From the NCBI GenBank assembly GCA_017610175.1, contig JAFCCO010000014.1, positions 1 through 32,954 on the forward strand: a DNA stretch of 32,954 nt, in the 5' to 3' direction. The position numbers and the translations under genes were made by a program. The stretch comes from Candidatus Iainarchaeum sp. Its GTDB lineage: Archaea; Iainarchaeota; Iainarchaeia; Iainarchaeales; GCA-2688035. Shown piece by piece: positions 1 through 21,285 of this stretch (its first letter is position 1; every line of letters starts with the position of its first letter). The notes beneath the pieces are model-generated. The model had not been told where the DNA came from and did no database searches. It saw only the letters and a program-made list of their open reading frames with translations.

Positions 1-114
1 ATGACTAAGTGCAAAAACTGCGGGCATGAGATAATTTTTATAGAAAGATGGTGGCACTTAAGAGCCATTAGACAAACTAAGCAAGGGGAAATGACTGATG
101 TGGCAATTAAATGT
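1..114. repeat. Terminal direct repeat (identical to 32841-32954); indicates a circular genome of ~32,840 bp
   Basis: First 114 nt are identical to the last 114 nt, and ORF 32686-32844 runs into ORF 1-180 with an ATGA overlap across the junction. Confidence 0.97.
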
Positions 115-180
115 CCTCAATGTAAATGTAACGAGCCGTTGCCGTTGTCTGTGGAGGAAAAGAGAGGGGGCGGGAAATAA
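1..180 (+). CDS. Small Zn-finger protein (59 aa, CxxC...CxxC) ending GGGK
   Basis: Manual translation MTKCKNCGHEII...KCPQCKCNEPLPLSVEEKRGGGK. Confidence 0.8.
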   Translation: MTKCKNCGHEIIFIERWWHLRAIRQTKQGEMTDVAIKCPQCKCNEPLPLSVEEKRGGGK

Positions 181-182
181 AG

Positions 183-371
183 ATGAGTGAAGGTTTTTTT
201 AAGCGAACAGCAAGAATTTATGTTGACTGGATGGATTCTCAGAATTTTGTTAGACATTCAATTGCGCTTTTTTGGCTTCCAGTTTTTATCCCAATAATAT
301 TGGTTTTGAAATATAACCATATTTTTGAGTTTGCAGAAGCATTAGATAAGTTAAGTGGGGGCGGGAAATAA
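183..371 (+). CDS. Hypothetical small membrane protein (62 aa) ending GGGK
   Basis: ORF track; one hydrophobic segment; bounded by junction repeats. Confidence 0.75.
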   Translation: MSEGFFKRTARIYVDWMDSQNFVRHSIALFWLPVFIPIILVLKYNHIFEFAEALDKLSGGGK

Positions 372-373
372 AA

Positions 374-616
374 ATGGGCGTTACTAAAGAAGAGATTAGG
401 ACACATTTACTAAGTCCAGTTCAAAGGAATGACATGGAAAATGATGCGGATTGTGAAGTTACAAATGTTTTGGCTTTGTGGTGTCAGCATTGGGAAGAAA
501 AGTTAAGCAAAATGAGTAAGGAAGAAAGAAGAACTTTTTTGGACAAAAAGCAACCGAAGTCAAGCTGGCATTTTATTGTTGAAATAATAGAAGAAGAAGA
601 GGCGGGGGGGGTGTAG
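374..616 (+). CDS. Hypothetical protein (80 aa)
   Basis: ORF track; starts 2 nt after a junction repeat. Confidence 0.75.
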   Translation: MGVTKEEIRTHLLSPVQRNDMENDADCEVTNVLALWCQHWEEKLSKMSKEERRTFLDKKQPKSSWHFIVEIIEEEEAGGV

Positions 617-623
617 GTAAAAG

Positions 624-773
624 ATGATTCTTGAGGGGAAGGATGCGTTGGCTTTTGTTGAGCGTATGCGAAAGCAGGTGGGTAAGCCTTTGACAAAGTC
701 GGATAAGGAGTTATTGAAAGAGATTAAGAAACTGCCATTGTCTGTGGAGGGAAAGAGAGGGGGTGGGAAATAG
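624..773 (+). CDS. Hypothetical protein (49 aa) ending LPLSVEGKRGGGK
   Basis: Manual translation MILEGKDALAFVERMRKQ...; tiles the array. Confidence 0.75.
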   Translation: MILEGKDALAFVERMRKQVGKPLTKSDKELLKEIKKLPLSVEGKRGGGK

Positions 774-775
774 AA

Positions 776-919
776 ATGGATGGAAATACAAAACAAGAGA
801 TTGAAGCAAAAATTGGGACATTAAGACATACTAAGGCATTTATCAATATGCTCATTAGAGCAAGAAAAGAAGACCTTGCAGAATTAAGAAAAAGGAAGCC
901 AAGCGGGGGCGGGAAATAA
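776..919 (+). CDS. Hypothetical protein (47 aa) ending GGGK
   Basis: Manual translation MDGNTKQEIEAKIG...KRKPSGGGK. Confidence 0.75.
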   Translation: MDGNTKQEIEAKIGTLRHTKAFINMLIRARKEDLAELRKRKPSGGGK

Positions 920-921
920 AG

Positions 922-1026
922 ATGAATCCTTGTGATGAATGTTTGGCTGATTGCAAAAGATGTATTTTGCGGGATGCGGTTAATGCGTTGGAGCGGATTG
1001 CGGTTGCGTTGGAGGAAAAGAAATGA
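922..1026 (+). CDS. Small Cys-rich protein (34 aa)
   Basis: MNPCDECLADCKRCILRDAVNALERIAVALEEKK; ATGA overlap with the next gene. Confidence 0.65.
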   Translation: MNPCDECLADCKRCILRDAVNALERIAVALEEKK

Positions 1027-1718
1027 GTGAACGAGTTTTCATAATAATGCCTGCGTTCAACGTTGAAGACCAGCTTGCAGAAACCGTTGCAAAGATTCCA
1101 GCGGGTGTGTGTGAAAAGCTAATTATTGTAAACGATGGAAGCAAAGACAACACTTTAAAGATTGCAAAGAAAATAAGCGGAACAGATTTTGAGGTTCAGG
1201 TAATAGACCATAAGAAAAATCTTGGATATGCGTTGGTTCAAAAGCGTGGGTACAGGGAGGCTTTGAAACAGGGAGCGGACATAATGGTGTTACTGCATGG
1301 GGATGGCCAGTATGCTCCAGAGTTTATTCCTTTGCTTCTTAGCCCGTTGCTTAAAGGAACGGCTGACGTGGTTCAGGGAAGCCGGATGCTTGGCGACCCG
1401 TTGGCTGGCGGAATGCCTTTTTACAAATATGTTGGAAACAAGATTTTAACGGGTTTTGAAAACCTTGTGCTTGGGCTTAACATGTCGGAGTTTCACAGCG
1501 GATACATTGCTTACTCTAAGAAAGCTCTTGGTGTTGTACCTTTTGAGGATATGGAGAACTGTTTTCATTTTGACGGGGAGATGATTATTTCAGCAAACAA
1601 AGCAGGGCTTAGAGTGGAAGAGGTTCCAATTCAGACAATTTATGCGGGAGAAAAAAGCAACCTTAATCCGTTAAAGTATGGCTTAAATGTTATTAGGGTT
1701 GCGTTAAAGTATTGGTGA
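1023..1718 (+). CDS. GT2 glycosyltransferase, polyprenol/dolichol-phosphate sugar synthase (DPM1-like)
   Basis: IIMPAFN, IIVNDGSKDNT, HKKNLGY, LHGDGQY, DVVQGSR and EFHSGY motifs. Confidence 0.93.
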   Translation: MSERVFIIMPAFNVEDQLAETVAKIPAGVCEKLIIVNDGSKDNTLKIAKKISGTDFEVQVIDHKKNLGYALVQKRGYREALKQGADIMVLLHGDGQYAPEFIPLLLSPLLKGTADVVQGSRMLGDPLAGGMPFYKYVGNKILTGFENLVLGLNMSEFHSGYIAYSKKALGVVPFEDMENCFHFDGEMIISANKAGLRVEEVPIQTIYAGEKSNLNPLKYGLNVIRVALKYW

Positions 1719-1724
1719 TTTGTT

Positions 1725-2210
1725 TTGAAGCTGTTGGGAGATTATGCGAGGGCAAAGCGGTTTAACAAAATTTTAAAGCATGTAAATTTTGAGGACGTTG
1801 TTCTTGACTTGGGTTGTGGTAAGGACATGTGCAACACTAAGAAGTTGAGAACTCTTGGATTTAACTGCATTGGAGTTGACTTAAACGGTGGAGATGTTGT
1901 AGCTGACGCAAGGTGCCTTCCGTTTGAAGACAACTTTTTTGACACAGTTCTTGCAATAGAGGTCTTGGAACATGTTGACTGTGTAAAAGAAATATGCAGA
2001 GTTTTAAAGCCAAACGGTTGGCTTATTGCGACCACTCCGAATCCTGCGTTGGACTGGATAATTCACGTCTTTGAGGGGCTTGGATTAATTTACCCCAACG
2101 TTACGCCTCACAATAACTTGTTACGGCTTAAAGACCTTCCAATGAAACTTATAAAATTTGACTGGATGTTCTTTCACATAACTCAGTTTGGGGTTTTGGC
2201 CAATGATTAA
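1725..2210 (+). CDS. Class I SAM-dependent methyltransferase (Methyltransf_11-like)
   Basis: VLDLGCG, GVDL, DARCLPFEDNFFD, EVLEHV and RVLKPNG motifs. Confidence 0.92.
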   Translation: MKLLGDYARAKRFNKILKHVNFEDVVLDLGCGKDMCNTKKLRTLGFNCIGVDLNGGDVVADARCLPFEDNFFDTVLAIEVLEHVDCVKEICRVLKPNGWLIATTPNPALDWIIHVFEGLGLIYPNVTPHNNLLRLKDLPMKLIKFDWMFFHITQFGVLAND

Positions 2211-3387
2211 GCGAAACGAAACTCTTTTGCTTTTCTTATTAATCTTGTTAGGCTTTTCGTTGCGTTTTGCTGGAAGCGTTTACTTTCCAATGTGGGCGGG
2301 GCCTGACGAACCGGCTCACTTTGTTTACATTCAGCACATTGCAGAACACGGTGTCCCGAACTTTGTTTTAACGAAGGAAATCATTAACGACAGCCTGTAT
2401 TACATCAGCGTGTTTGAGCCTCCACTGTATCACGCTTTGCTTTCATTGTTTCCATTAAACCTTTATTTTCTAAGGCTGTTTTCTGTTCTGTTTGGAACTG
2501 CAGGAATTTTTGTAACTTATTTGATTGCGAAGCGTCTTGGGTTTAATGCAGGAATTAGGCTTGCGAGTGCGGCTTTTGTTGCGTTGCTTCCAACGCATGT
2601 AATAGTTAGCAGCGTGGTAAACAACGGTTCTCTTGTGTGGCTTTTTTGTTTAATAACAATATACTTTTCAATTTTGGCTCTTGAGGAAAGGAAGGCAGTT
2701 CACGTTGCTTTGGTTGGGGTGTTCTTTTCTCTTGCTGTTTTAACAAAGCTCACTGCGTTAAGCCTTGTTCTAACTGTGGCAATCGTGTTGGGAGTGTATG
2801 TTTTCAAGAGCAGGGGTCATGTGTTGAAAAAACTGGCAGTGTGTTTAATTCCGTTGGCAATAGTTCCTGTCTTTTTGAGAAACCTTGCAACAACTGGTGG
2901 GTTGATGCCAAGCATGTTGAGCAAGCCGTTTAACCTTTCGTTTAGCTGGCTGTTGTACTATATCACTCACTTGTTTTCAGGAGTGTGGCTTCAAGAGTAC
3001 GGAGCGGCAACGGTTCCAGACTATCGAATTTTGTTCTTTGCGTTCTACGCAGTTGTTTCGCTTGTGGCGTTGGTTGGGTTTGTTCACTTTTTCTTTACTA
3101 AGTTAAGTTTAAGAAAAAGGTTTATGACATTTTCAGTTTTAATTTTGCCAGTGTTGTTAAACTTTGCCGGAGTAACTTACTTGAACACCTTTTGCCTTTG
3201 CCCTGATGGAAGAATGTTATTTGACACGATTGGCCTGGTGGCAATTTTGTTTATGGTTGGGTTGTTTGGAGTGCGAAAGAAATCTAAACTTGTTTTGTTT
3301 GTTCTTTTAACAATGTTTCTTTTAGACTTGGTTGTTTTAGTAAATTATAATGCGGTGTTGCCAGAAGTGATTTGGAGTTTATTATGA
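2188..3387 (+). CDS. GT-C fold membrane glycosyltransferase (ArnT/PMT-like); probable start ~2203
   Basis: Multi-TM protein with PDEPAH, EPPLYH, LRLFSVLFG and LAVLTK motifs. Confidence 0.85.
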   Translation: MGFWPMIKRNETLLLFLLILLGFSLRFAGSVYFPMWAGPDEPAHFVYIQHIAEHGVPNFVLTKEIINDSLYYISVFEPPLYHALLSLFPLNLYFLRLFSVLFGTAGIFVTYLIAKRLGFNAGIRLASAAFVALLPTHVIVSSVVNNGSLVWLFCLITIYFSILALEERKAVHVALVGVFFSLAVLTKLTALSLVLTVAIVLGVYVFKSRGHVLKKLAVCLIPLAIVPVFLRNLATTGGLMPSMLSKPFNLSFSWLLYYITHLFSGVWLQEYGAATVPDYRILFFAFYAVVSLVALVGFVHFFFTKLSLRKRFMTFSVLILPVLLNFAGVTYLNTFCLCPDGRMLFDTIGLVAILFMVGLFGVRKKSKLVLFVLLTMFLLDLVVLVNYNAVLPEVIWSLL

Positions 3388-3472
3388 TATATACTGTTGT
3401 TTACGGGGGGGGAAGAAAAATGTTTAGGTTGTGGGATAGGTTGTGGTTTGCTTTGAGGACTGGTGTTAGAAA

Positions 3473-3910
3473 ATGAGGGATGTTTTGGTAATTGGCAACG
3501 GTGTTTCTGAAACGCTGATGGTGTTGAACGATTTGGCAAAGTTTAGGGTGGCGGTTTCTGTTACTGTTCGGCCTCACCAGATGCGAAAGGATGTTGGAGC
3601 GATTGCCGAGCATGCGGCTCGTTTGGTTTTGGATGTGGTTGTTGACCGGCGGCAGGAACTCAACGAGCAGATGGTTTCTCACAACGTGGTTTTGACTTTG
3701 TTTAATGCAACTGGCAGCGGAACTTATTCAAGCGTGGTTTTGCAGGCGATTGGCTGCCGTTGCCCTGTTTTGATTTACTGCTTTAACAGGGAGACGGCTG
3801 ATGTTTTGTTTAAGAACATGCGGAAAACAGGCGAAAGGAATTTTGCAATTGAGGCCCGTATTGTTTCTTCCCCTGAACAGCTTGAAGAGGATGTGTTGGT
3901 ATGGTGCTGA
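3473..3910 (+). CDS. Rossmannoid protein, possibly SLOG/YspA-like nucleotide-binding
   Basis: N-terminal VLVIGNG; LNEQMV..VLTLFNATGSGT resembles SLOG RNxxMV..LIAxWDGxSxGT. Confidence 0.5.
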   Translation: MRDVLVIGNGVSETLMVLNDLAKFRVAVSVTVRPHQMRKDVGAIAEHAARLVLDVVVDRRQELNEQMVSHNVVLTLFNATGSGTYSSVVLQAIGCRCPVLIYCFNRETADVLFKNMRKTGERNFAIEARIVSSPEQLEEDVLVWC

Positions 3911-4059
3911 AGGGAGCTTATGATGGCGGCTTTGAGTTGTGCCGTTGCCTTCGATGCGGGTACAGCTGGTTTCCTAAAAAGGAAGGTGAGCCAATTCGTT
4001 GTGCCAACCCGGAGTGCCATTCTCCTTACTGGAACAAGGCGCGGGTGCGAAATGAATGA
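3901..4059 (+). CDS. Zn-ribbon protein typical of archaeal viruses (52 aa)
   Basis: Manual translation ...CLRCGYSWFPKKEGEPIRCANPECHSPYW... Confidence 0.85.
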   Translation: MVLKGAYDGGFELCRCLRCGYSWFPKKEGEPIRCANPECHSPYWNKARVRNE

Positions 4060-4157
4060 TTTGCACCGAATGCGGGAACGCAGAGTATTTCATTTTTGAA
4101 GAGAACGGGGAAGTAATTTGTTCTCACTGTGGGACGGTGGTGAAAGCTGTGCGCTAA
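4056..4157 (+). CDS. Stand-alone TFIIB/TFB-type zinc ribbon (33 aa)
   Basis: MICTECGNAEYFIFEENGEVICSHCGTVVKAVR matches the TFB N-terminal CPxCG...xGExxCxxCGxV pattern; ATGA overlap with the previous gene. Confidence 0.75.
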   Translation: MICTECGNAEYFIFEENGEVICSHCGTVVKAVR

Positions 4158-4176
4158 AGAAAAGAAAGTAAAGTTT

Positions 4177-4467
4177 GTGAAACCGGTTAATATAATTTCT
4201 TCGGTTTGCTTTCCCCTGCTTCCAGGCGAACACATAGATTTGGAAACCGCTTTAAGTTGTGTTAAAGAAAGTAGAAAATTTAACAGCTGTTATATTAACG
4301 AAGCGTTTCACAACCTTTGTTTGAAGGGAGAGGGTGTAACAATTACTGTAACTTACAAGGGTAGTTGTAAGATTTTTTCCCTAATGTCAGAGCGTGAAAC
4401 GGAACGTTTTTGCTTTGATTTGTGGGCTGATTTTTTTAAAAAAAATACGGTAAAACAAACACTATAA
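4177..4467 (+). CDS. Single-repeat TATA-binding-protein (TBP)-like protein
   Basis: VNIISS~VNIVAS, IDLE~LDLE, YINEAF~YEPEQF, VTITVTYKGSCKIFSLMSERE~VTFLIFSSGKIVITGAKSEEE; only one TBP repeat in 96 aa. Confidence 0.72.
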   Translation: MKPVNIISSVCFPLLPGEHIDLETALSCVKESRKFNSCYINEAFHNLCLKGEGVTITVTYKGSCKIFSLMSERETERFCFDLWADFFKKNTVKQTL

Positions 4468-4542
4468 TTTAAATACCCTTATGGAGTTTGTATAGCTTGC
4501 CCTTGTTTTAAGGCATTCTGTTGGGGGCAAAAAATTCGTTAT

Positions 4543-4576
4543 ATCGTTAAGGGAAGTTAGGTGCATATATATGTAC
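4543..4576 (+). promoter_or_regulatory. Putative late promoter motif upstream of the major capsid gene
   Basis: ATCGTTAAGGGAAGTTAGGTGCATATATATGTAC; a near-identical copy is on the minus strand at 25009-25041. Confidence 0.75.
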
Positions 4577-4593
4577 CAAAATGGTGAAATCGA

Positions 4594-4830
4594 ATGGAGG
4601 GAAACATCGTGGACAAGCTGGAAACAAGAGGACAGATTAATGTTGCGGCTGCTGCTATTGGAGCTATAATCGGTGTTATTGGAATCATAATCTTCGCAGA
4701 AGTTTATGACGGCCTTAACACTACACAAGTTTCAACCAGTGCAACCAATCTGCTTGATCTTGTAGACTTGCTGCTTGCTGCGGTACTAATTATAGGTATC
4801 GTTGCGCTCATGGCCTTCATCCGAAGGTAA
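4594..4830 (+). CDS. Major capsid protein, spindle-shaped virus type (SSV1 VP1/His1-like)
   Basis: Two hydrophobic helices with a short linker containing NTT; SATNLLDLVDLLLAAVLII resembles SSV1 VP1 TNATLLNLVPLFYILVLII; has its own promoter and terminator. Confidence 0.85.
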   Translation: MEGNIVDKLETRGQINVAAAAIGAIIGVIGIIIFAEVYDGLNTTQVSTSATNLLDLVDLLLAAVLIIGIVALMAFIRR

Positions 4831-4847
4831 TGAGGTGGCATAAGCCA

Positions 4848-4882
4848 GCGCCTCTTGCGGGGGCGTTCCTTTGTTTTTTTTT
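4848..4882 (+). terminator. GC hairpin plus T-tract after the MCP gene
   Basis: CGCCTC-TTGC-GGGGGCG followed by T9. Confidence 0.65.
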
Positions 4883-4897
4883 GTGAGGTGTTAGAAA

Positions 4898-5245
4898 TTG
4901 CTTGATGTGATATTTTATTTGCAGGTTGCGTTCTTTGCCGTGCTTTTGCTTTACGGTTTTTGGAGCAAGTCGCCTGCTGTGTTTGCTTTGGCTGGTGTGT
5001 TTTCAATTTTAACCGGTGTAATGCTTGTTGGTGAAGGGCTTGACATTCCAACAGGGTATGAGATTTCTGGGGCGGATGATAATGTAATGCAGGTTTCTGA
5101 AACTTATTCGACTTACTTTACTTTTAATTCGGGTGCTGTGAATATGTGGCATTATGTTTTGTTGTATGGTGGGTTTGTTTGGTTGATTGTTGCGGCTGTG
5201 CTTGCTAAGAGAGGGCATGAGGTGGGTGTGGATGTTGGCGAGTAA
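4898..5245 (+). CDS. Small multi-TM virion/membrane protein
   Basis: Three hydrophobic segments; GAGGTG RBS before a TTG start. Confidence 0.8.
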   Translation: MLDVIFYLQVAFFAVLLLYGFWSKSPAVFALAGVFSILTGVMLVGEGLDIPTGYEISGADDNVMQVSETYSTYFTFNSGAVNMWHYVLLYGGFVWLIVAAVLAKRGHEVGVDVGE

Positions 5246-7874
5246 GCTGGTTGTTTGCGCTTTCCTGTTGTTGTTTTGTTCGCAGGCTTTTGCTTTTTTT
5301 GGTTTGTTTGAGCGGCAGATGCCGCCAATAATTATTAACAATCTTGATGTTAATGGAGAGGATGTTAATGTTAACAATTTGTGGGCTGTAAACATTGATG
5401 CTAATTCTATTATTGTGGATTTTTTGGTTGGGAGAAACTATATTGATTTGAATATTTTGAATGATATTAATGCAAGGAATGCTGGTTTGACTGGCCAGCT
5501 TTGGGTTGGGGGGGGTTCGTTTTTTGGTGGGGATGTGAATGGTGCATACGATATTCGGGCTAAACAGTTTCTTTGGGCGGAAGGTGGAAAGCTTTGCACT
5601 GCAACGCAATGCTATGATATTGCTTTGGATTTAAATTTTTTTAGAAGCGAAGCAGACTTGAACACAATTGGCTTTGTGCCGTACGTTGGTGCTGGTTCAA
5701 ACGTTGACCTTGGAGCGTACGACTTTGCAACAACAGGCTCAGGTAGGTTTGACAGATTGGGCTTGAATGCCACAGTTGACCCACTCATTCAAATAAAAGG
5801 AATAATGTCTGCTACAGATAATTATGCGATTAATTTTGACGGTACAACAAATCCCTATACTGGGGATATAGATAATGTGCTTGCCCCTAAAGGTTTCAAA
5901 ATGCACAGAAAGTTTACAGGGAAGCCATATTTTGCGGCAACGTTTCCGATAGTAAACGATTTCCTTATTGATATGGATTTTGACACAAACCCAGGGGATG
6001 ATGTTCTGTCTTACTTAACCGCTTTTAGGAATGAAATTAAAATGCAAGCCAATTTTGCTCAAAGCGGTTCTCTTACTATGAGACCAATAGTTTCAGAAAA
6101 TATATTTGAGCCAGGAACTTCTACTTTTGGGGATGATGACTCTGTTGCGATTACGGGGGCGGGGAATGCAACTTTAGAATTTATATTAAGCGAAAATAAA
6201 CTGGGAAATAACAGCGCTTTTAGCAATATATTTACATTAAATAAATCAAGCGGCACTGTTACTATTACAGATATTGGATTGAACGTTTTGAATGGGTCAA
6301 AGTTTGCATCTCTGGATGCAGGAGCAACCGTAAACAGAACCAGTTATGTGGCGAAATTGAGTGGGAAAGGATACTCAGATGCCCAGTTTTCTGGCACAGA
6401 TAATATTACTTCAACCCGATACGGTTTGTACATAGACAATATCACAGGAGCGAACAATAATTACGGAATAGTAATAGCTCAAGATGACGTAGGTCTTACT
6501 TTAGGGGCTGGGAAAGAGGCAACTCTTTTAGGTTCGGCAAGCGGTTTTGAAACAACGTCAAACTTTCAGGCACGAGACTTTAACGGAACAAATATGGCTT
6601 TGGACGGCGGGCTTACTTTGAATGGCACCCCGTCTGTAATAGATTCGCCTAACGAAATTCATGTAAAAGCAAACGGTGACTTAGACGACTATATTGCTTT
6701 TGTTACTGCGGGAGGCTCTACAAAGATTGATGCTGTTGGAAGCACACTCTATTTTGATGCAGACGGTTCGGGAATGAATTTTTTAAACAACGACCTTTCA
6801 AACATTGCAACTTTAAATACTGTAGATTTGGTTGCATCTGACGATATATCGGCAGGCGGAAAAGTTACAGTTAATACTTCTGGTTCAGCACAAGATTACT
6901 TAACGCTAAACGGCTCAATTGGAGGAAGCCCACCAAGTTCAATACGAGGCGGTGGAATTAGTTTAAGTAATGGGGCGGGGATTGTTGGGCAGATGTATGC
7001 AAATTTAGATTATAGATTCGTGTGGGACACCACTAAGCAAGCTTCAAGTACGGACACTGGGAATGCGTGGCTGAACCTGCAAACAGGGGCGGTTTCGTTT
7101 GCAGGGCACAATTTTACGATAAGTAGTACAGGGCAAACGGCAATAGATGGCGACAACGTAAAGCTTCTTTTAGGAGAGGCTGGCGATGCTTCACTTTACT
7201 ATGATGCTGTGAATATGTTAATTAACCCAAAAGAAGTTGGAGGCGGAATACTCAAAATTTTGGGGGATGTAAACGCAGAAACGGCTTACTTTGAATCTGC
7301 CAAAATTGGAGATTTAACAAATTTCACTAACTTTGCTTCTGATGGGCGACAAACAATGCTGGGAACAGCAAGGTATAAACTAGGTTTTGAAATTGATAAT
7401 TCTGGATTTAAAGAGCCACCTGCTCAGTCTGCTACTTTAGTGAATAGGGGAATTGGAACAGCTTATGAATTTTCTGACGGGCAAAGTGAACACATTCATG
7501 CTGAGATACGAATTACTGGCAGATGGGTGGATACAGAGGACTTGACTGTTATTTTGTTGTGGGATAGTCCAACAGTTTCAGAAGATTGCAACTGGGAAAT
7601 AACGTATTTGTTTAGAACATTCGATGAAGATATGAGTGAAGAGAATACAGAAGGAACTATATCCTGCCTAAAAACAAGTTCAAGCAATGCAAACGGATTG
7701 GTTCATTCAACTTGCACGATTCCAACAATAGATTTTAACCCAAATGATAAAATACTTCAATTAGAGATTTGGAGAAACGGAGACGACCCAGCTGACACAT
7801 TAGGAGACAGTGCTTATCTTCACACTATGATTATTCAAGGAATTGCTGACGAGTTGGGTGGAGTAGTAACTTAG
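5232..7874 (+). CDS. Large secreted beta-rich fibre/adhesin-like protein (~880 aa)
   Basis: Signal peptide MLASKLVVCAFLLLFCSQAFA after a GAGGTG RBS; rich in G/N/T/S/D; mosaic composition. Confidence 0.8.
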   Translation: MLASKLVVCAFLLLFCSQAFAFFGLFERQMPPIIINNLDVNGEDVNVNNLWAVNIDANSIIVDFLVGRNYIDLNILNDINARNAGLTGQLWVGGGSFFGGDVNGAYDIRAKQFLWAEGGKLCTATQCYDIALDLNFFRSEADLNTIGFVPYVGAGSNVDLGAYDFATTGSGRFDRLGLNATVDPLIQIKGIMSATDNYAINFDGTTNPYTGDIDNVLAPKGFKMHRKFTGKPYFAATFPIVNDFLIDMDFDTNPGDDVLSYLTAFRNEIKMQANFAQSGSLTMRPIVSENIFEPGTSTFGDDDSVAITGAGNATLEFILSENKLGNNSAFSNIFTLNKSSGTVTITDIGLNVLNGSKFASLDAGATVNRTSYVAKLSGKGYSDAQFSGTDNITSTRYGLYIDNITGANNNYGIVIAQDDVGLTLGAGKEATLLGSASGFETTSNFQARDFNGTNMALDGGLTLNGTPSVIDSPNEIHVKANGDLDDYIAFVTAGGSTKIDAVGSTLYFDADGSGMNFLNNDLSNIATLNTVDLVASDDISAGGKVTVNTSGSAQDYLTLNGSIGGSPPSSIRGGGISLSNGAGIVGQMYANLDYRFVWDTTKQASSTDTGNAWLNLQTGAVSFAGHNFTISSTGQTAIDGDNVKLLLGEAGDASLYYDAVNMLINPKEVGGGILKILGDVNAETAYFESAKIGDLTNFTNFASDGRQTMLGTARYKLGFEIDNSGFKEPPAQSATLVNRGIGTAYEFSDGQSEHIHAEIRITGRWVDTEDLTVILLWDSPTVSEDCNWEITYLFRTFDEDMSEENTEGTISCLKTSSSNANGLVHSTCTIPTIDFNPNDKILQLEIWRNGDDPADTLGDSAYLHTMIIQGIADELGGVVT

Positions 7875-7906
7875 AAGGAAAATACACTAACGAGGTGAAT
7901 GTTTTT

Positions 7907-8407
7907 ATGAATGCGAAAAGGTTTTTGGTTGCGGTTGTGCTGTGCTTTGTTGTCGGAGGCGCAAGCTTGGCTGTTGCTGAGATAATGATTCCAGATGCCA
8001 CGCCAAGACAAGACCGTGTAATTGAAATTGACGCAAACACCGTAACGCAGATTAAAAGCTGGTACGTTGACGAACTTGGAATGAGGATTGACAACCTTAA
8101 CGCAGAGTTTGGAGAGCTTGCCTGCGACAATTCTGACAACAACTTTGCAAAATGTGCGTTTTCGGTTGAAAGTCCTATTTTGCACACAAGCCTTGAGATA
8201 GACAAATACAAGTGTGTTGATTTGAATGTTGAAACGAACCAGTGTATTACGTATGGGGAAAAGGATTTGGCTGAAAAGATTAAAAGCCAAAACGAGGCAT
8301 ACGAGGCAAAGCTTGACGAAATCAAAGAGGCAACAGAAATGCGACTAACCGCTTTACAAACTGCAGCGGCTGGAGCGGCCACAGTAACGGCTACGGAAAA
8401 AAAATAA
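7907..8407 (+). CDS. Secreted/membrane-anchored hypothetical protein
   Basis: GAGGTGA RBS, signal peptide, Cys pairs, C-terminal coiled coil. Confidence 0.8.
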   Translation: MNAKRFLVAVVLCFVVGGASLAVAEIMIPDATPRQDRVIEIDANTVTQIKSWYVDELGMRIDNLNAEFGELACDNSDNNFAKCAFSVESPILHTSLEIDKYKCVDLNVETNQCITYGEKDLAEKIKSQNEAYEAKLDEIKEATEMRLTALQTAAAGAATVTATEKK

Positions 8408-8435
8408 AAAAAGTTATTCGAGGTGAATCAAAGAA

Positions 8436-8723
8436 ATGGACACGGTAATAAAAGTAGATGTAAAAAAGGCAACAGTAATTGTTTTGTTAATAGTTGGCGC
8501 TTTTTTTGCAGGAGCTTTGGCAACAGAGCGCCAGTTTGAATTAGCTGAACTGCTTCAGCCAAAACAAATAAGCTTGAACGAGGCAGACAGAAACATTTTG
8601 ATAGCGGTTGGACAAATTGCAGCCTTAACAGAATGTCAAAAGCTTGGATTTGAAACAAGTTTTATTGTGAGTGATTTGAATGGAATGCAGGTTGCAACAA
8701 CCGTTTGTGTGGAGGAAAACTAA
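8436..8723 (+). CDS. Single-TM hypothetical protein
   Basis: GAGGTGA RBS; N-terminal TM segment. Confidence 0.8.
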   Translation: MDTVIKVDVKKATVIVLLIVGAFFAGALATERQFELAELLQPKQISLNEADRNILIAVGQIAALTECQKLGFETSFIVSDLNGMQVATTVCVEEN

Positions 8724-9311
8724 ATGGATGAAGAGCAAGAGCAAGAAGAATACATTAAGCCATACGAACAGGATCATATTCCTGTAACAAGCGATCAACA
8801 GTTGGGCCAAGACATTTTGAGAACGAGTGCAAGAGTTTCAGATCCACCACTAATTAAAATGCAGAAGGTTAGGAGAAAAGTTCCGGTGTTCGGAGTGAAA
8901 ACAATTTTGTTAAAAGACGGTTCAACGAAAGATGTTGAGTTCATTGAAGCGTGGGAAATGCAAGAGTGGGATATTCCAATAAAGGTTCAGCCTGAATACC
9001 ACGAATTAATAACTGACGATATTGCAAGAGCCTTTCTTTCAAGAGAAGATTATTGGATTTACTTGGACATTGGAGAATATTGCCAAACGGTTAGATCTTT
9101 TGCAAAGCGTTACGATTTAGACTTGGCCCTGCATCATAACCATTGGGTTGACGGCTGCAATCAAATGGTTGTTGGATCGGGAGCGGTTGGAGGCCAAAGG
9201 GTAAAAATTGCAAAAGCAAACCTTTCGGAAACAACTTACAAAGCCGACACGTTCCAAATAATGCAGCAAAAGAAAGACAACACGAGAAAAAAAGTTTTGG
9301 GGATCTTTTAA
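8724..9311 (+). CDS. Hypothetical protein (morphogenesis cluster)
   Basis: ORF abuts both neighbours (TAAATG). Confidence 0.8.
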   Translation: MDEEQEQEEYIKPYEQDHIPVTSDQQLGQDILRTSARVSDPPLIKMQKVRRKVPVFGVKTILLKDGSTKDVEFIEAWEMQEWDIPIKVQPEYHELITDDIARAFLSREDYWIYLDIGEYCQTVRSFAKRYDLDLALHHNHWVDGCNQMVVGSGAVGGQRVKIAKANLSETTYKADTFQIMQQKKDNTRKKVLGIF

Positions 9312-9734
9312 ATGAAGTGGCTTAAAAAGGCTCGTGGAATGGGTGCTGGAACGTGGCTTCGAGAAAAGCAAAAGGCGGCAGCGTTCATAAAGCTTTCAGA
9401 AGGGCTTGGGGGAAAAATGATTGTTTCCCAAGTGATGAAGCGAAACTGGTACAGGCACATTGACAAAGCGCTTGCAGGCAACACAACAGCTCGTGACTTT
9501 AAACACTGGAAGAAAATGGTAAAGATGTTTAAGCGAGAGCTTGTTGGAACTCCAACAAGGGAAACAAGTTCGTTGCTTGAGTGGCTTGAAGGATTCAAAG
9601 AGCGAGTAAAGGTTGAAAAGATAACAAAGAGTGATTTAGCAAAGTGGCTTCCGCATTTTAAGGAATATATGCTTTCCTGCGAGGGCAACTATGCAAACAA
9701 CTACATAATTAAAAATGAGTTAATGGAGGGATGA
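9312..9734 (+). CDS. Basic hypothetical protein
   Basis: ORF track; tiles the operon. Confidence 0.75.
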   Translation: MKWLKKARGMGAGTWLREKQKAAAFIKLSEGLGGKMIVSQVMKRNWYRHIDKALAGNTTARDFKHWKKMVKMFKRELVGTPTRETSSLLEWLEGFKERVKVEKITKSDLAKWLPHFKEYMLSCEGNYANNYIIKNELMEG

Positions 9735-9735
9735 A

Positions 9736-10446
9736 ATGTTTGGGGTGAAGAAAAAAATTAAAGAAATGTTACCGCCAAAAGAAGAGGTTGGTATAAAGGG
9801 CGCTGAAGAAATAGGTGAAAGGGAAATAATGGGAAAGTATCTGTTGAGAGATATGCCCTTGTTTAAGTATGAAATTTTTGCATACTTTGGAACGTTTGCT
9901 GCATTCTTAATGGTTTCAGCAGTTGACAGGCTTGGAATTGTTCCGGGCTTGACTGGAAAGGTTTTTTTTCCACTTTTGCTTGTTCCGATAGTTGTGTGGT
10001 TTATTAAGTGGGCGAAGTATATGCCGAAGAAGAACCGCATTCCAGGAATGCGCATTTATAAAAGCGGGGTAGTGGAGTTAAAGGTTGAGGACTTGTCAAA
10101 GGGGTATGTTGTTTACGGCAAGGGAGAAAACGCTCAGCGAAAGTATATAACAAAACTAAATCGGCACGTTGAAGCAAGCACTGGAAGGCCGTTTCTTGTA
10201 ACAAGTGAACTGCGAGGGGAAAACATTTGTTTGGTTGAGGACTCTAAGCCAGATATGCGAAGTGAAGAGTTTAACGGAGTGCTTGAATTAAACACCGTTA
10301 TTGCAACAAAGAAGGCAATGGCAAGGTCGATAAATTTCACTAAGGAGGACTTGTTGTCACCGCAAATGATTTTGGCATTTTTGACAATGGGAATGGTGGC
10401 TTTCTTGCTTGTGAAAAACTTGGGCTTTTTGCCGGGAATGGCGTGA
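9736..10446 (+). CDS. Membrane protein (2 N-terminal + 1 C-terminal TM), putative assembly/egress factor
   Basis: Hydrophobicity pattern; lies upstream of the ATPase. Confidence 0.75.
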   Translation: MFGVKKKIKEMLPPKEEVGIKGAEEIGEREIMGKYLLRDMPLFKYEIFAYFGTFAAFLMVSAVDRLGIVPGLTGKVFFPLLLVPIVVWFIKWAKYMPKKNRIPGMRIYKSGVVELKVEDLSKGYVVYGKGENAQRKYITKLNRHVEASTGRPFLVTSELRGENICLVEDSKPDMRSEEFNGVLELNTVIATKKAMARSINFTKEDLLSPQMILAFLTMGMVAFLLVKNLGFLPGMA

Positions 10447-10450
10447 AAGC

Positions 10451-10726
10451 ATGGGAAAGAAAGGCGGTAGAAGAATAAGCATTCCACGCATTGAGGATAG
10501 GAGTAAACACAATACACGGTTTGCTATTTTGAATAATGAACTTAACGGAAGTCCAACAAAGGTTTTGGAAAAGTTTGTTGACACCGGGTTTAAGGGTGAC
10601 TGGTGGACTAAAGAGGGCTTGCGGGAAAGCAAAGCGTTCAGGCGATTAATCGAACTAACGTGGGGAAAAAGCTTTCTCAAAAACCTTGAAAGGATTCGTA
10701 GGGAACAGGAAAAGAAAGGGATTTGA
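10451..10726 (+). CDS. Basic hypothetical protein
   Basis: ORF track; tiles the operon. Confidence 0.7.
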   Translation: MGKKGGRRISIPRIEDRSKHNTRFAILNNELNGSPTKVLEKFVDTGFKGDWWTKEGLRESKAFRRLIELTWGKSFLKNLERIRREQEKKGI

Positions 10727-11161
10727 ATGGGGTACAAAGACAGCCGATCTGTGACATACGGTGACTTAGTGTTTAGGCATCTTGACAGGATGTCTGACTC
10801 GCTAAGTTCCGGAATGGATGTTGGAAAGCCAAACACAGCCTTGTTGACTTCTTACTATTTGCACATTCTTCACTTTCAAAGCATGTTAACAAAGTGTATC
10901 ACCGGAAGCAAACTGAAGAAAATAAGGACAATCAAAGCGCAGATTCCTGCGGTTGCAACAATGTATAATGGAAGCTTAAAGGACAGCATTGTTTTCTTAG
11001 AAGCCATAAGTGAATGGTTTGAAATCCTTTTAATTGTAGCAAGCGAGAGCAACGTTCTTTCAATGACTCCAAGAGCTTTTAACGATTACAACAATGATAC
11101 AATTGAGGAAATGAGTGCTTATGGTAACGAAGAAAGTGCCGACAGCTCTGCTAAATCATAA
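10727..11161 (+). CDS. Hypothetical protein
   Basis: ORF track; tiles the operon. Confidence 0.75.
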   Translation: MGYKDSRSVTYGDLVFRHLDRMSDSLSSGMDVGKPNTALLTSYYLHILHFQSMLTKCITGSKLKKIRTIKAQIPAVATMYNGSLKDSIVFLEAISEWFEILLIVASESNVLSMTPRAFNDYNNDTIEEMSAYGNEESADSSAKS

Positions 11162-12044
11162 AGACGCTTGGTTTTTTGTTCCAAATTGGAGGCGAATGCA
11201 CAACAAAAGACAGCAGTTTAACGCTGTTTTTGCGGGCCAGTGTGGAACGGGAAAGAGCTATGCAAGCCTTTCAACGGCTGAGTTGATGGACAGAGCGCCA
11301 AACGTTGAGGAAGAAACCCGTTTTTCGCTTGACAATGTTGCCTTTTCTTCGGGAGATTTTGCAAGGTTAACGAACAAAAAAACTCCAATTGGTGGCGCTA
11401 TTTTAATTGATGACGCTGCCTTTTCAGCGTACTCAAAGGATGCGATGACTCGTGAAGTAAAGCAGGTTGCGAAAATTTTCATTAGCCAGAGGCACAAGAG
11501 GCGGTGCATTCTTATTTCGCTTCCGGCTCTTGATATGCTTGCAAAGAACATCATGCAGACAATGCTTTACTATATTGAAATGAAGTCTATTGATTACCAC
11601 AAATCTATATCTTATGGAAAGCCTCATCAAATCATTTTGAACCCGAAGACTGGCAAGCTGTATTATAGATGGCTTACTCACTGGAGGAATGAGCGCCATC
11701 CTAAGTTTGGCTTCAGGAATTCGGTTGAGCTATACAGGCCTGATCTTTCGTTCTCTGTGCCTTCAAAGAACTTGCGTAGGGACTATGAAAAGTATCGTGC
11801 AGATGCTATGGCTTCTCATTATGAGGAAGCACAGCGCATTATTGAAAATAAGAAGGAAAAAAAGAGTACATTGGCTGACGCTTATAACGAAGTTAAGGCA
11901 AATGTAGAGCCTTTTTTGAATAAACGTAACCGTGTTGATGCTGGAAAGCTAATGTTGAAGGGTTTATCTGAGTATAAGGCTAAAAACATTGCTAAACTGC
12001 TTAATGATGAGAGGGATAGGGGGTTGAGTGAGATTATTGTATAA
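11115..12044 (+). CDS. P-loop ATPase, putative morphogenesis/packaging ATPase (Zot/B251-like)
   Basis: Walker A GQCGTGKS, Walker B ILIDDA, QRHKR motif. Confidence 0.85.
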   Translation: MLMVTKKVPTALLNHKDAWFFVPNWRRMHNKRQQFNAVFAGQCGTGKSYASLSTAELMDRAPNVEEETRFSLDNVAFSSGDFARLTNKKTPIGGAILIDDAAFSAYSKDAMTREVKQVAKIFISQRHKRRCILISLPALDMLAKNIMQTMLYYIEMKSIDYHKSISYGKPHQIILNPKTGKLYYRWLTHWRNERHPKFGFRNSVELYRPDLSFSVPSKNLRRDYEKYRADAMASHYEEAQRIIENKKEKKSTLADAYNEVKANVEPFLNKRNRVDAGKLMLKGLSEYKAKNIAKLLNDERDRGLSEIIV

Positions 12045-12170
12045 TATATAATATAATAAAGGGAAGCACAAACACCTCATTTTTACCGAAAAGCGAACAG
12101 TATGCGGTGTGGTTCGCCTTCTGGCGAAACAGCGAAAGGATTTTAAGAAGTTGTGTAAGAAATAATCATC

Positions 12171-12719
12171 ATGAACAAGTATAATTCATTTGGGCTATCC
12201 TATGCGGACTTTAAGGAACGAATAACATCCATAAAGGACACCAGGGATGCCGCTTTGTTCGCAACTATCTACTGCGGGTACGCAAGAGTCGGAGAAATCG
12301 TTAAAGGAAGGTACTCAAAGAACCCACCCGTTGAAAAAGAACAAATTAAACTAACTAAGCGACACTTATTTATTGACATTTTAACCGAGAAGACAGGCCA
12401 GTGGAGGCGTGTGCCTTCAAGCAGGCTTTACGATGGCTGGCTTCACGATCCAATTGTTGAGTGGATTGAACAATGTCAAACGGATGCGTTGTTTCCGTAC
12501 ACTACCCGGTGGGCACAGTACAGGTTTGCCAAGCACTTTGGTTCAAGCCACATTCATTTGCTTAGGCATTGGGCCTGCAATCATGCGCTTCAAGGCAAAC
12601 GAACCACTAAGCGCTTGCTTCCGCAGTATGTGGCACACTTAGGAGGCTGGACAAGCATCAACACGTTCTACCACACTTACGCTCACTTTACAATTGAGGA
12701 TTTTATTGACCAAATTTAA
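12171..12719 (+). CDS. Tyrosine recombinase, catalytic domain only (182 aa)
   Basis: YCGYARVGE (R), TEKT (K), HLLRH, LGGW and terminal TY catalytic residues. Confidence 0.88.
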   Translation: MNKYNSFGLSYADFKERITSIKDTRDAALFATIYCGYARVGEIVKGRYSKNPPVEKEQIKLTKRHLFIDILTEKTGQWRRVPSSRLYDGWLHDPIVEWIEQCQTDALFPYTTRWAQYRFAKHFGSSHIHLLRHWACNHALQGKRTTKRLLPQYVAHLGGWTSINTFYHTYAHFTIEDFIDQI

Positions 12720-12731
12720 GGGGGAGATTTT

Positions 12732-12896
12732 ATGGAAAGAAAAAGTTCTGATGAAGCAAAAGCAATGAGGTATTATAATAGGCTTATTTTTAGGATTATA
12801 AATTTGATAATAGCTTTATTCTTTTTGTTTGTTGTTTTATGTGGCGTGATTTTTTTTATTCCTATTGTTTGGAATATTGCAGTTAGTAACTTTTAA
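12732..12896 (+). CDS. Small membrane protein (54 aa)
   Basis: Manual translation; GGGGGAG RBS; long hydrophobic stretch. Confidence 0.65.
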   Translation: MERKSSDEAKAMRYYNRLIFRIINLIIALFFLFVVLCGVIFFIPIVWNIAVSNF

Positions 12897-12908
12897 GGGG
12901 GTGAAATT

Positions 12909-13046
12909 ATGGACTACAATATTGGATCAAAGCTTGACGATTTGATTGCTGGCGAGGTTGAAATAATTAAGCGCTTTGACAAATTAATTAAGCTTTCAGA
13001 AATGGACGTTGCTGTTGAAGACAAAAACGAGAAGGGGAAGGATTGA
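12909..13046 (+). CDS. Hypothetical protein (45 aa)
   Basis: Manual translation MDYNIGSKLDDL...; GGGGGTGA RBS; TTGA overlap with the next gene. Confidence 0.65.
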   Translation: MDYNIGSKLDDLIAGEVEIIKRFDKLIKLSEMDVAVEDKNEKGKD

Positions 13047-14143
13047 AGCTTTCCCCCTTCCTTATTTTTTTTGTGCTACTTTTTGTAGCCTTTGGCATAT
13101 ACTTTTTGCGGCCTGATTTTGTTGGAATGGACTCTTACGGACATTTACTTTTAACTTGTCAAAATAACAACGCAATGGGGGCTACTGGCATACCTTTTTT
13201 GCTGTTTGATGCCATTCCTTGTAATTTAATAGAACTCAAGATGCTTTTATTCTGCTGTGCTTTCGTTTCAGGGTGTTTCATAATCAAGATGGCTATGTTA
13301 TTCAGTAAAGAACACGGTTGGCGTGCGAGTTACCTGATTTTTTTGTCACCGGTTCTTGTTTTGGAGTTTTCAAAATTTGAAAATGATGCTTTTGCGTTTC
13401 CAATTCTGTTTGCTTCGCTGTACTTTTTCTTCAAGTCGCTTAAAGCAAACCCTGTGCTGAGAAAGGAAATGGTTTTGGCCCTTGCTCTTTTAATTCCGGC
13501 TGGGCTTTTGTGGAGTGGTTCTTGGTATTTTCTTGTTTCTTACTCGCTGAACTTTTTTTGGCTTGGATTAATTTCAGTTCCGGCCATTTTACTTTTTCGT
13601 AAATCTTTTGTTGGGGGAATTTTGCGAACTTCTCGCATTGCTGAAGATATGCCTTTTTTACTTCATGTTCATTGGGTTTTAATTCTTGGGTTTGCGGGGG
13701 TTATTCTTTCCCCCCTTTTGTTGCCACAGGCGGTGTTCTTTTTTGCAATGGGTTTGGCTTCTGCAAAGTTTTGGATACTTTCATTGCCTTTTTTAGTGTG
13801 CGGTGCGGTTTTGTTGCATGAACGTTTGAACAGCCCTTCCCTAAATACGATTGCGTTGGTTATTGCGCTGTTTGCAGTTGTTGGAACAGCTCAAAGCATT
13901 ATGCTTAACCCGCCAACTGAAAGCCACTGGCAAGCCCTTGAATTTGCTAACGAAATCTCTGACGGAAACTATGCAGCAGACTGGGGGTACGGCTACTGGC
14001 GGCTTTGGGCAGGCCACGACACAAACTCTTACGGAACGTTTTGGAAGCAAGAGGACTACAACGGAATGATTGCAGTTTCAGAACAGCCTCTTGGATGCCC
14101 ACAAATTAAACAATTTGGAAAAGTTGGTGTATGGCGTTGCTAA
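13043..14143 (+). CDS. Miniature STT3/AglB-like GT-C protein (putative oligosaccharyltransferase)
   Basis: GMDSYGH (~DPYYH), ENDAF (~DHD), ~11 TM segments, WQALEF, ADWGYGYW (~SWWDYGYW). Confidence 0.65.
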   Translation: MKLSPFLIFFVLLFVAFGIYFLRPDFVGMDSYGHLLLTCQNNNAMGATGIPFLLFDAIPCNLIELKMLLFCCAFVSGCFIIKMAMLFSKEHGWRASYLIFLSPVLVLEFSKFENDAFAFPILFASLYFFFKSLKANPVLRKEMVLALALLIPAGLLWSGSWYFLVSYSLNFFWLGLISVPAILLFRKSFVGGILRTSRIAEDMPFLLHVHWVLILGFAGVILSPLLLPQAVFFFAMGLASAKFWILSLPFLVCGAVLLHERLNSPSLNTIALVIALFAVVGTAQSIMLNPPTESHWQALEFANEISDGNYAADWGYGYWRLWAGHDTNSYGTFWKQEDYNGMIAVSEQPLGCPQIKQFGKVGVWRC

Positions 14144-14150
14144 GGAAGTG

Positions 14151-14187
14151 AAAAATAAAAAAAAACCCCGCTTTGTGGGCGGGGTTT
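14151..14187. terminator. Probable bidirectional terminator between convergent transcription units
   Basis: AAACCCCGC-TTTGTGG-GCGGGGTTT hairpin preceded by a long A-tract. Confidence 0.75.
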
Positions 14188-14370
14188 AGGAATTTGGCTT
14201 TATATGACTATACATAACTGTACAAATTGAATATATAAAGCTTAGACAATTTAATTTTTGGCAGGCACATAAGTAGAGAAGCCCAACTGAAAAGCGTGCC
14301 TGCCGTTGAAGTTTTTTTGCTTCAGGGTGAATCAAAGCAAAAAGTGCCTTTTTGTAGAATAAGCGTGTAG

Positions 14371-14496
14371 TTAAAGCCCTGACTTTTTTGCAAGCTTTAT
14401 GAACTGCTCAAAGCTCATCCCAATCCCGCCTTCCTGCATTTTTTTATCATACAGGCTACGCATCTTTTTCATATCTCCTTTGTAATACATAAACAT
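14371..14496 (-). CDS. Small protein (41 aa)
   Basis: Perfect GGAGGTGA RBS; MFMYYKGDMKKMRSLYDKK... Confidence 0.7.
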   Translation of the reverse strand: MFMYYKGDMKKMRSLYDKKMQEGGIGMSFEQFIKLAKKSGL

Positions 14497-14567
14497 TTCA
14501 CCTCCTTTTCAGTCAATGTATGCTCTGAATCCAGCATAAGTATAATAACGCCTTTTCTTTCGAGCCA

Positions 14568-14690
14568 TCACATGTACCCCCGTTGCCTTGCAATCTTTTT
14601 CCAATAGGTTTTCAAACCGTTTGGAGTCTTTGGATTGCGAATTATCTTTAAGATAATTGCCTTCGTCATCTTCGGTGCTTTACGAACCAT
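14568..14690 (-). CDS. Small basic protein (40 aa)
   Basis: Perfect GGAGGTGA RBS; MVRKAPKMTKAIILKIIRNPKTP... Confidence 0.7.
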   Translation of the reverse strand: MVRKAPKMTKAIILKIIRNPKTPNGLKTYWKKIARQRGYM

Positions 14691-14704
14691 TACACATCAC
14701 CTCC

Positions 14705-14947
14705 TTAAACAATTCTTTCATCCGATTCACGATATTGGTCATAAATGCTAACTGGCTTTTTCTTTAACCTTTGCTTTATGGCCGAATACAAAGAACCAAG
14801 CGGTTTTCGCTTAAAACCAAACAAAGGCTTTGCCTTTCTTCTGCGCCTTTTTACTTTCCTTCCACGCTTTTTTGGAAAAGCTGCCAAGCTACCTCGCCCT
14901 TTCGGGGAAGAATCCATTGACAAAAGCATTGCCCTTTTTTGCCTCAT
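14705..14947 (-). CDS. Highly basic protein, putative nucleoprotein
   Basis: KKRGRKVKRRRRK; in the structural operon. Confidence 0.7.
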   Translation of the reverse strand: MRQKRAMLLSMDSSPKGRGSLAAFPKKRGRKVKRRRRKAKPLFGFKRKPLGSLYSAIKQRLKKKPVSIYDQYRESDERIV

Positions 14948-15108
14948 TCAAACAACCTCCTTGCTCGCTTTAACATTTTAACAGCTTCAGGCTTTCCAGT
15001 TCGCTGCAAGTGAACCTCTTTAATATGCAACTGCCTTCCAGCCCGAACAAAGTTTTTATCTTTGTCAAAGTCTGAAGCCACTTTCCTTAAATAGTTTGCC
15101 AAATCCAT
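14944..15108 (-). CDS. Small basic protein (54 aa)
   Basis: MDLANYLRKV...; AGGTGA RBS; the upstream extension in the ORF track overlaps a real gene. Confidence 0.65.
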   Translation of the reverse strand: MDLANYLRKVASDFDKDKNFVRAGRQLHIKEVHLQRTGKPEAVKMLKRARRLFE

Positions 15109-15113
15109 TCCCG

Positions 15114-15467: not shown

Positions 15468-15470
15468 GTT

Positions 15471-19808: not shown

Positions 19809-19832
19809 TGGTTATTTTCCTCCACGAAACTC

Positions 19833-21031: not shown

Positions 21032-21040
21032 ATTCGTTTT

Positions 21041-21271: not shown

Positions 21272-21285
21272 AACAAGTTACCTCC

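Follow-up and report, generated by a model that had tools for sequence, protein, structure and literature searches.

The window analysed here, the whole 32,954-nucleotide (nt) stretch of contig JAFCCO010000014.1 of Candidatus Iainarchaeum sp. (assembly GCA_017610175.1), ends in 114 nt that repeat its first 114 and thus represents a circle of 32,840 bp, in which window position 32841 is circle position 1. Spanning the junction of this circle is an array of very small open reading frames (ORFs) that follow one another through a short, repeated, G-rich sequence, and it is this repeated sequence that we characterize. The preliminary description of this DNA had proposed eight consecutive small ORFs running from 32408 through the circle junction to 1026, which is confirmed by the 114-nt overlap and by the tiling of the ORFs, since eight of them lie back to back on the + strand and together cover 32408..1026. 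They are listed below, along with the start signal and the ORF that precede the first of them.

Upstream ORF, 32038-32430: overlaps O1 by 23 nt
O1 start signal, 32391-32397: GGGGGCG, then 10 nt to the ATG
O1, 32408..32683, + strand: 91 codons, ends SGGGK; conserved small-protein family found beside primases
O2, 32686..32844, + strand: 52 codons, ends GRGGEGKR; crosses the circle junction, and its TGA overlaps the ATG of O3 (ATGA)
O3, 1..180, + strand: 59 codons, CxxC...CxxC, zinc-ribbon-like; ends LPLSVEEKRGGGK
O4, 183..371, + strand: 62 codons, one hydrophobic segment (read off the translation); ends SGGGK
O5, 374..616, + strand: 80 codons, ends EEEEAGGV
O6, 624..773, + strand: 49 codons, ends LPLSVEGKRGGGK, a tail in common with O3
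O7, 776..919, + strand: 47 codons, ends RKPSGGGK; shares 31/33 nt of its tail with O1
O8, 922..1026, + strand: 34 codons, CxxCxxxCxxC; its 3' end holds an ordinary GGAGG (1011-1015) and an ATGA overlap

Five of the eight ORFs carry a GGGK C-terminus, and only 2-7 nt separate those neighbours that do not overlap. With the tails trimmed, the bodies of the array ORFs show no pairwise similarity (55 pairs, best z of 2.53), so that the micro-genes are mutually unrelated, as had been supposed. Runs of 6-7 T on the coding strand occur inside array ORFs at 196-202, 268-273 and 535-540. Elsewhere on the circle a 183-codon acidic ORF (31213-31764) ends in DKGGK and is followed by about 45 nt that hold no obvious start; a G-rich tail is thus also found where no coupled gene follows.

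The junctions between the array ORFs fall into two types, A and B, that share a G-run resembling a Shine-Dalgarno (SD) sequence. Their positions are given below, with the energy of predicted pairing to the 3' end of 16S ribosomal RNA (rRNA) where it is quoted singly.

J1, type A, 32669..32688, + strand: GGGGGCGGGAAATAA-AG-ATG, comprising the SD-like G-run, the TAA of O1 and the ATG of O2; -9.5 kcal/mol, with 8 nt from the last paired base to the ATG
J2, type B, 32824..32843, + strand: GGGGGCGAAGGTAAAAG-ATG; -11.2 kcal/mol
J3, type A, 166..185, + strand: exact 15-mer; 41/46 identical with J6 when extended upstream
J4, type A, 357..376, + strand: exact 15-mer, then AA, then ATG
J5, type B, 607..626, + strand: GGGGGTGTAGGTAAAAG-ATG, with a TAG inside the module 7 nt before the ATG; -13.1 kcal/mol
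J6, type A variant, 759..778, + strand: GGGGGTGGGAAATAG-AA-ATG; -14.0 kcal/mol, its T restoring full pairing with the 16S 3' end
J7, type A, 905..924, + strand: exact 15-mer; 25/25 identical with J1

The sequence GGGGGYGGGAAATAR is common to five of these junctions, four of the copies being exact. The 15-mer GGGGGCGGGAAATAA is present without mismatch at 166, 357, 905 and 32669 and with 2 mismatches at 759, and all five of these copies stand at the ends of array ORFs; a sixth match, with 3 mismatches at 6155, is unrelated. In dinucleotide-preserving shuffles the mean number of matches was 0.79, and none of 100 shuffles reached 6. The two variant junctions of the form G-run...GGTAAAAGATG that had been pointed out earlier are likewise present, before the ATGs at 624 and at 32841 (circle position 1). 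At J2 the G-run and its spacing are equal to those of type A, while the upstream ORF reads another frame and stops in ATGA. When the signal is reduced to what both types share, GGGGG(C/T)G-N10-ATG, it is found at 8/8 array starts, including the first at 32408.

The circle is contig C3 of an archaeal bin of 34 contigs and 1.24 Mb (90% complete), in which no other contig has a terminal overlap. In the remaining 1.21 Mb of this bin, GGGGG(C/T)G-N10-start occurs at 12 sites even with ATG, GTG or TTG allowed as start, and only 3 of the 12 precede an ORF of at least 150 codons. When the 20-nt sequences upstream of 1,672 ORF starts in the bin are compared, the largest cluster of near-identical members is that of the array junction. 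The sole other cluster with at least three members comprises host ORFs at C10:24342, C12:5173 and C20:19843, whose upstream sequence G[GC]AAACCTTAAAATACCTGT is almost identical over 20 nt; this second cluster may stem from a promoter or a gene that is present in several copies.

It is clear from the reading frames that the repeat is not kept for its translation. The same G-run, at the same distance from the following start, is translated as GGGK-stop, KKGAKS..., GRGGEGKR-stop or EAGGV-stop, and one G-run read in different frames means that the constraint acts on the RNA and not on the peptide. The codons lead to the same conclusion, which had been drawn in the preliminary description from the conserved synonymous positions of the five GGGK tails: four of these tails share the codons GGG-GGC-GGG-AAA, which have a probability of 0.005 per GGGK tail under the codon usage of the element, and GGA, the commonest Gly codon of the element, is unused in them. 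Judging from the sequence, the GGGK tail would be simply what the signal happens to spell, a by-product of writing an SD site in that particular frame.

The pairing of the junction with rRNA was evaluated with the 16S 3' end of genomes of the same family, as the bin's own 16S gene is not in the assembly. An archaeal 16S gene is present in 11 of 22 other genomes of the family, and the 3' end is the canonical GGATCACCTCCT in 6/6 loci from 6 of these genomes. All eight array starts pair with GGAUCACCUCCU at -9.3 to -14.0 kcal/mol in one register, the last paired base lying 8 nt (once 9 nt) before the ATG, and the other genes of the element use the canonical GGAGGTGA as SD. The claim that each repeat supplies a stop, a ribosome-binding site and a start can thus be seen directly in the aligned junctions and in their pairing to 16S rRNA. 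In ten of ten single-strand folds (five junctions, both strands) the G-rich core is almost wholly unpaired, as in an accessible site, which supports its reading as a ribosome-binding sequence.

The placement of the signal relative to the preceding gene is similarly regular. The distance from stop to start in the junctions that follow array ORFs (J1-J8) is +2 in five, +7 in one and -4 in two, all of them inside the range of -8..+10 nt that is treated as predictive of termination-reinitiation in Haloferax and Escherichia coli according to PMC10666635; the junction before O1, with its 23-nt overlap, lies outside that range. Intragenic SD motifs have been described as contributing to reinitiation in an archaeon, Haloferax (PMC6728339). 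The host bin itself places its SD sequences in this manner, a strong SD (at most -8.4 kcal/mol) being found before 39% of the 261 genes that start -8..+10 nt behind a same-strand neighbour and before 10-18% of genes in the other three classes.

We consider it probable, though well short of certain, that the junction is a stereotyped translation-coupling signal, i.e., one for SD-assisted termination and reinitiation, that has been copied along the array. The eight small genes constitute a tightly packed block, most likely on one polycistronic transcript. In each module a G-rich SD (GGGGGYGG) is written into the final codons of the gene that ends there; an A-rich spacer with the stop of that gene comes next, and the following ATG lies 2 nt farther on or overlaps. 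We infer that a ribosome ending one micro-gene would be held by the SD site and restart on the next gene, and free ribosomes may load at the junction as well.

The copies look like homologous descendants of one module and not like products of convergence, because synonymous and non-pairing positions match and because longer tails are common to two pairs of unrelated ORFs. In 6/8 junctions a C that mismatches the rRNA is retained, although a synonymous T pairs better (-13 to -14 kcal/mol for the junctions with T vs. -9.3 to -11.2 kcal/mol for those with C). Tails have been copied between ORFs whose bodies are unrelated: the identities of 25/25 and 37/41 reported previously hold and extend to 31/33 in the pair O1/O7 and to 41/46 in the pair O3/O6. 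Similarity among neighbours is also found more widely in the element, where the 20-nt upstream sequences of neighbouring starts are more alike than when the order of the genes is shuffled (the observed mean is reached in 0 of 5000 shuffles, and in 28 of 5000 with the array left out). One ancestral module may have been propagated from gene to gene within the array, whether through local duplication, gene conversion or recombination, and descent from one module would explain the identical synonymous and non-pairing bases.

There are several points that weigh against coupling by a copied SD signal. The GGGGG begins at -17, which is 2-5 nt upstream of the peak of host GGAGG (-15 to -12), and an alternative register with GGCGG at -14 fits the host peak but carries a central mismatch. 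An SD by itself does not need 15-20 identical bases, and it is common descent to which we would attribute this excess of identity. Archaeal RNA polymerase can terminate at T-runs, and the runs of 6-7 T in the array (e.g., ~196-202) could be archaeal terminators, in which case there would be no single transcript and read-through would be incomplete. Finally, in the Haloferax work the SD is reported as not essential for reinitiation, with a contribution that varied by gene pair (PMC6728339).

Two further properties of the G-runs were considered. A -1 frameshift at GGG-AAA-TAA that would fuse successive ORFs was rejected on reasoning from the frame, as the zero-frame codons form no X-XXY-YYZ slippery site. 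With respect to G-quadruplex potential, only two-tetrad arrangements are possible at most junctions.

The array is not the only place where neighbouring genes of the element share a junction sequence, and two further families are listed here together with the principal genes used as landmarks.

Second junction family, 29964..30347, + strand: AGGAGGCGAAGGGCGAATGA(A/G)TG in three copies, with ATGs at 29980, 30165 and 30344; -12.0 to -12.1 kcal/mol
Third junction family, two copies, 12715-12734 and 12892-12911: TTTAAGGGGG(A/T)GA..TTATG, comprising stop TAA, G-run and start
Integrase-like ORF, 12171-12719: 182 codons; PHROG match at E 7.6e-6, sole NCBIfam match XerC at E 0.035
Prim-Pol/D5-type primase-helicase, 27296-29476
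GT2 glycosyltransferase gene, 1023-1718, + strand: directly after the array, in ATGA overlap with O8

The second family belongs to small hydrophobic ORFs of membrane type at 29762-30347 (about 73, 62 and 60 codons), all of which have EAKGE as their C-terminus; a module of 21-24 nt with an ATGA overlap connects each of them to the gene behind it, and after the last AGGAGGCGAAGGGCGAATGA copy comes a 259-codon ORF whose HNH-like match is weak (Pfam E 0.017, below the cut-off). The third family precedes a pair of neighbouring small ORFs, of 54 and 45 codons, that come just after the integrase-like ORF. A comparable arrangement is seen in a distant relative, contig C10 of genome G023 (G023:C10), in which, at ~2073-2883 as read on the primase strand, an O1 homolog with 41% identity lies downstream of the primase and is followed by a 113-codon ORF of membrane type and a 33-codon Cys-rich ORF. 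The two junctions of these ORFs share a private module, GAAAC-nnnn-GGAGAG(T/C)GATTCAAAATG. We read these private junction families as probable local copying, by duplication or gene conversion, of an expression signal that already works.

The contents of the circle are those of a virus- or plasmid-like element, a designation we use because no capsid gene was recognised among its proteins. Immediately downstream of the array, the GT2 glycosyltransferase is accompanied by a methyltransferase and a PMT_2-like membrane protein, and two giant proteins are encoded on the minus strand, one of them with ConA-like and DUF2341 domains. No tRNA genes were found on the circle, and no Rfam family reaches its gathering score anywhere in the window. 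On the coding strand G is strongly in excess and C is scarce, the GC skew rising to +0.45 in the array, and the skew changes sign near 14 kb and 25.5 kb, together with the orientation of the genes. A fragment of a second, related element is present in the bin as contig C19 (4,025 bases); it has homologs of two proteins of the circle, the lectin-like one of 1293 codons (43% over 537 residues) and that of the 366-codon ORF at 13043 (39%).

Searches for relatives returned few loci. The primase has one relative in IMG/VR at 43% identity and three genome loci at 34-49%; it was also found in 13 of 214 other genomes of the phylum (best 46%) and in phage records at 28.5% at most. These relatives share only the primase with the circle, except that G023 also has O1, and they are too distant for a comparison of cassette order (the G023 primase is ~33% identical). 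As for the junction motif, an exact-motif scan gave 0 matches in the viral_contigs collection, and there were 0 matches in the 214 other phylum genomes. In metagenome_contigs it has 58 single matches, none with a second copy and none related by tblastn or blastn, and we read these as chance.

Among the array proteins, O1 is the one with identifiable relatives. Its family has 12 representatives, 79-100 residues in length, with E of at most 1e-3 among 1.8 billion proteins, and the alignment, with invariant P11, P27, W29, R32 and L36, is without a Pfam name, a Pfam scan of its 13 rows having given nothing credible. The AlphaFold2 model of O1 has a mean pLDDT (the program's per-residue confidence) of 59.8, too poor for a structure search or a fold assignment. 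The family occurs in 2 of 215 phylum genomes (its own and G023); it was not found in viral_contigs or phage records, nor in the two genomes with loci L007 and L008 or in 401 sampled genomes of the G215 phylum, all of which are non-detections and not evidence of absence. For O3, all Pfam matches are below the cut-off, and O3 and O5 returned only themselves in word-index searches of 5.8 billion proteins, which covered proteins of similar length.

Of the alternatives, the one that survives best is that the junctions serve mainly as recombination linkers, i.e., that these patches of 20-46 nt provide homology for the gain, loss, duplication or swap of micro-genes between co-infecting elements, a newcomer landing behind a ready stop, SD and start as in the promoter-early stem-loop (PeSL) cassettes of T4-type phages or at the boundary sequences of lambdoid phages. 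We regard this as possible but doubtful. It is consistent with the tails of differing length that unrelated ORF bodies share (41/46, 31/33 and 25/25), with the tail of O1, which belongs to an old family and has here been overwritten by the local module (31/33 with O7), with the lack of matches for O3 and O5 other than themselves, as for fast-turnover cargo, and with the small genes after the O1 homolog of G023:C10, which differ from those of the array. Shuffling mediated by PeSL, along with mini-circles, is documented in T4-type phages (PMC2839356). On the other side, G023 is so distant that all of its accessory genes differ anyway, and the occurrence of three different junction families, none of which extends beyond a set of neighbouring genes, is better explained by local copying than by a general exchange site. 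Stretches of exact identity seldom exceed ~20-25 nt, a length that is generally regarded as short for homologous recombination. Of the earlier suggestion of recombination between junctions, the copying of tails between unrelated ORFs, with the overwritten tail of O1, is upheld. An exchange of whole genes may or may not have accompanied it; no variant of the array turned up in the collections searched and no gain, loss or swap was observed.

Less likely still is that the module acts as an operator, a site for an RNA-binding factor (protein or small RNA) of the element or the host that switches translation of the whole block. A dedicated regulator is among the possibilities proposed for the start-associated sequences (SAS) of Cluster K mycobacteriophages, and the argument of Pope et al. 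for SAS, that bases unable to pair with 16S rRNA are conserved, applies here to the C in GGGGGCG and to the spacer GGAAATAAAG (PMC3203893). The motif is also confined to this element within the bin. The conservation of the spacer, however, stems largely from the Lys codon, the stop codon and common descent, and the fact that types A and B differ in the spacer and keep the G-run and its distance suggests a module that is read by the ribosome. Among the proteins of the element no candidate regulator was found, and there was no Rfam match.

An integron-like, site-specific cassette system, in which the recombinase at 12171 would act on the repeat, had been put forward in the preliminary description and is very improbable. 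The array does have co-oriented small ORFs separated by repeats, with no room for promoters between them, and the element does encode the weakly integrase-like ORF noted above. This reading nevertheless fails on two defining features, a hairpin-forming site and an adjacent integrase. No imperfect palindrome or hairpin was found in ten 101-nt windows (five junctions, both strands, folded as single-stranded DNA; z of -0.94 to +0.97), and the repeat strand is almost free of C, GGGGGYG occurring 14 times on the + strand of the element and not once on the - strand. A distance of 11 kb separates the array from the integrase-like ORF, which has only 182 codons and no Pfam match, and the array is flanked by a 130-codon ORF and the glycosyltransferase instead of an IntI-type recombinase. 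In addition, the repeats are inside coding sequence and not between cassettes.

Equally hard to sustain is a functional role of the GGGK C-terminus as a peptide tag for processing, targeting or degradation, with the DNA identity following from the peptide, for although five of the eight array proteins end in this way, the same nucleotides are in other frames at three junctions, the codon identity far exceeds what the amino acids demand, and the tail is absent from 12/12 representatives of the O1 family.

We return to the preferred reading, a copied translation-coupling signal, in order to place it among known systems. In kind, the junction is an SD-assisted coupled junction, which is mechanistically known. 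It shares with the junctions described in PMC6728339 and PMC10666635 the arrangement of same-strand genes 2 nt or 7 nt apart or in ATGA overlap, and it shares with coupled junctions generally a strong SD in the last codons of the upstream gene, which the host bin favours at such sites. It differs from them in that ordinary coupled junctions are not copies of one another, whereas here eight consecutive ones share the SD variant and its distance and five share a 15-mer; coupling here is moreover a prediction from sequence.

As a repeat, the junction most resembles the SAS of Cluster K mycobacteriophages (Pope et al., 2011; PMC3203893), which we take as an analogue and not as a class to which it belongs. 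The SAS are described there as short asymmetric repeats in one orientation, preceding the ATG of unrelated non-structural genes by a few bases, with an SD core and conserved non-pairing bases, sometimes including the upstream stop, and virtually absent from the host genome, all of which has its parallel in the array. Their consensus as given in that work, GGGATAGGAGCCC, has no sequence relationship to the array junction, and they number 11-19 copies over half a genome and are conserved across phage subclusters, whereas the array copies are contiguous (PMC3203893). The host here is archaeal, and the motif was found in no other element of the collections searched. The function of the SAS is itself given as unknown (PMC3203893).

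The PeSL of T4-type phages (Arbiol et al., 2010, PMC2839356; PMC4122927) offer a second comparison, in that short repeated expression signals flank small ORFans in a plastic region and recombination between the copies would move genes that are expressed at once. According to the former account, however, the PeSL are intergenic promoter-plus-terminator hairpins for which shuffling and mini-circles were shown by experiment (PMC2839356), as opposed to a translation signal inside coding sequence with no hairpin and no observed shuffling event. Integron attC/IntI arrays likewise consist of co-oriented, short, promoterless and unrelated genes separated by repeats, but here there is no attC-like fold and no adjacent IntI-type integrase, and the repeat is within coding sequence.

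The array is a very clean natural case of a ribosome-binding site that is encoded in the final codons of the gene before it and recurs through eight genes in succession, and it lies in a mobile element tied to archaea with small genomes that have hardly been studied. It provides a concrete case for the expression of strings of micro-genes, for C-termini dictated by a signal (GGGK) and for the homogenisation of expression signals among neighbours. Without a role in recombination, the array is an orderly but mechanistically ordinary operon feature. A more speculative proposal, to which we give little more than an outside chance, is that the junction is a self-propagating "gene socket" that guarantees translation and at the same time gives homology for the capture, duplication, deletion and birth of micro-genes. 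If so, it would be the archaeal equivalent of PeSL cassettes at the level of translation, and the three junction families of the element and the module of G023:C10 would be lineage-specific versions of one strategy. If the copies are also points of recombination, the array would illustrate how ORFan genes enter archaeal viruses or plasmids.

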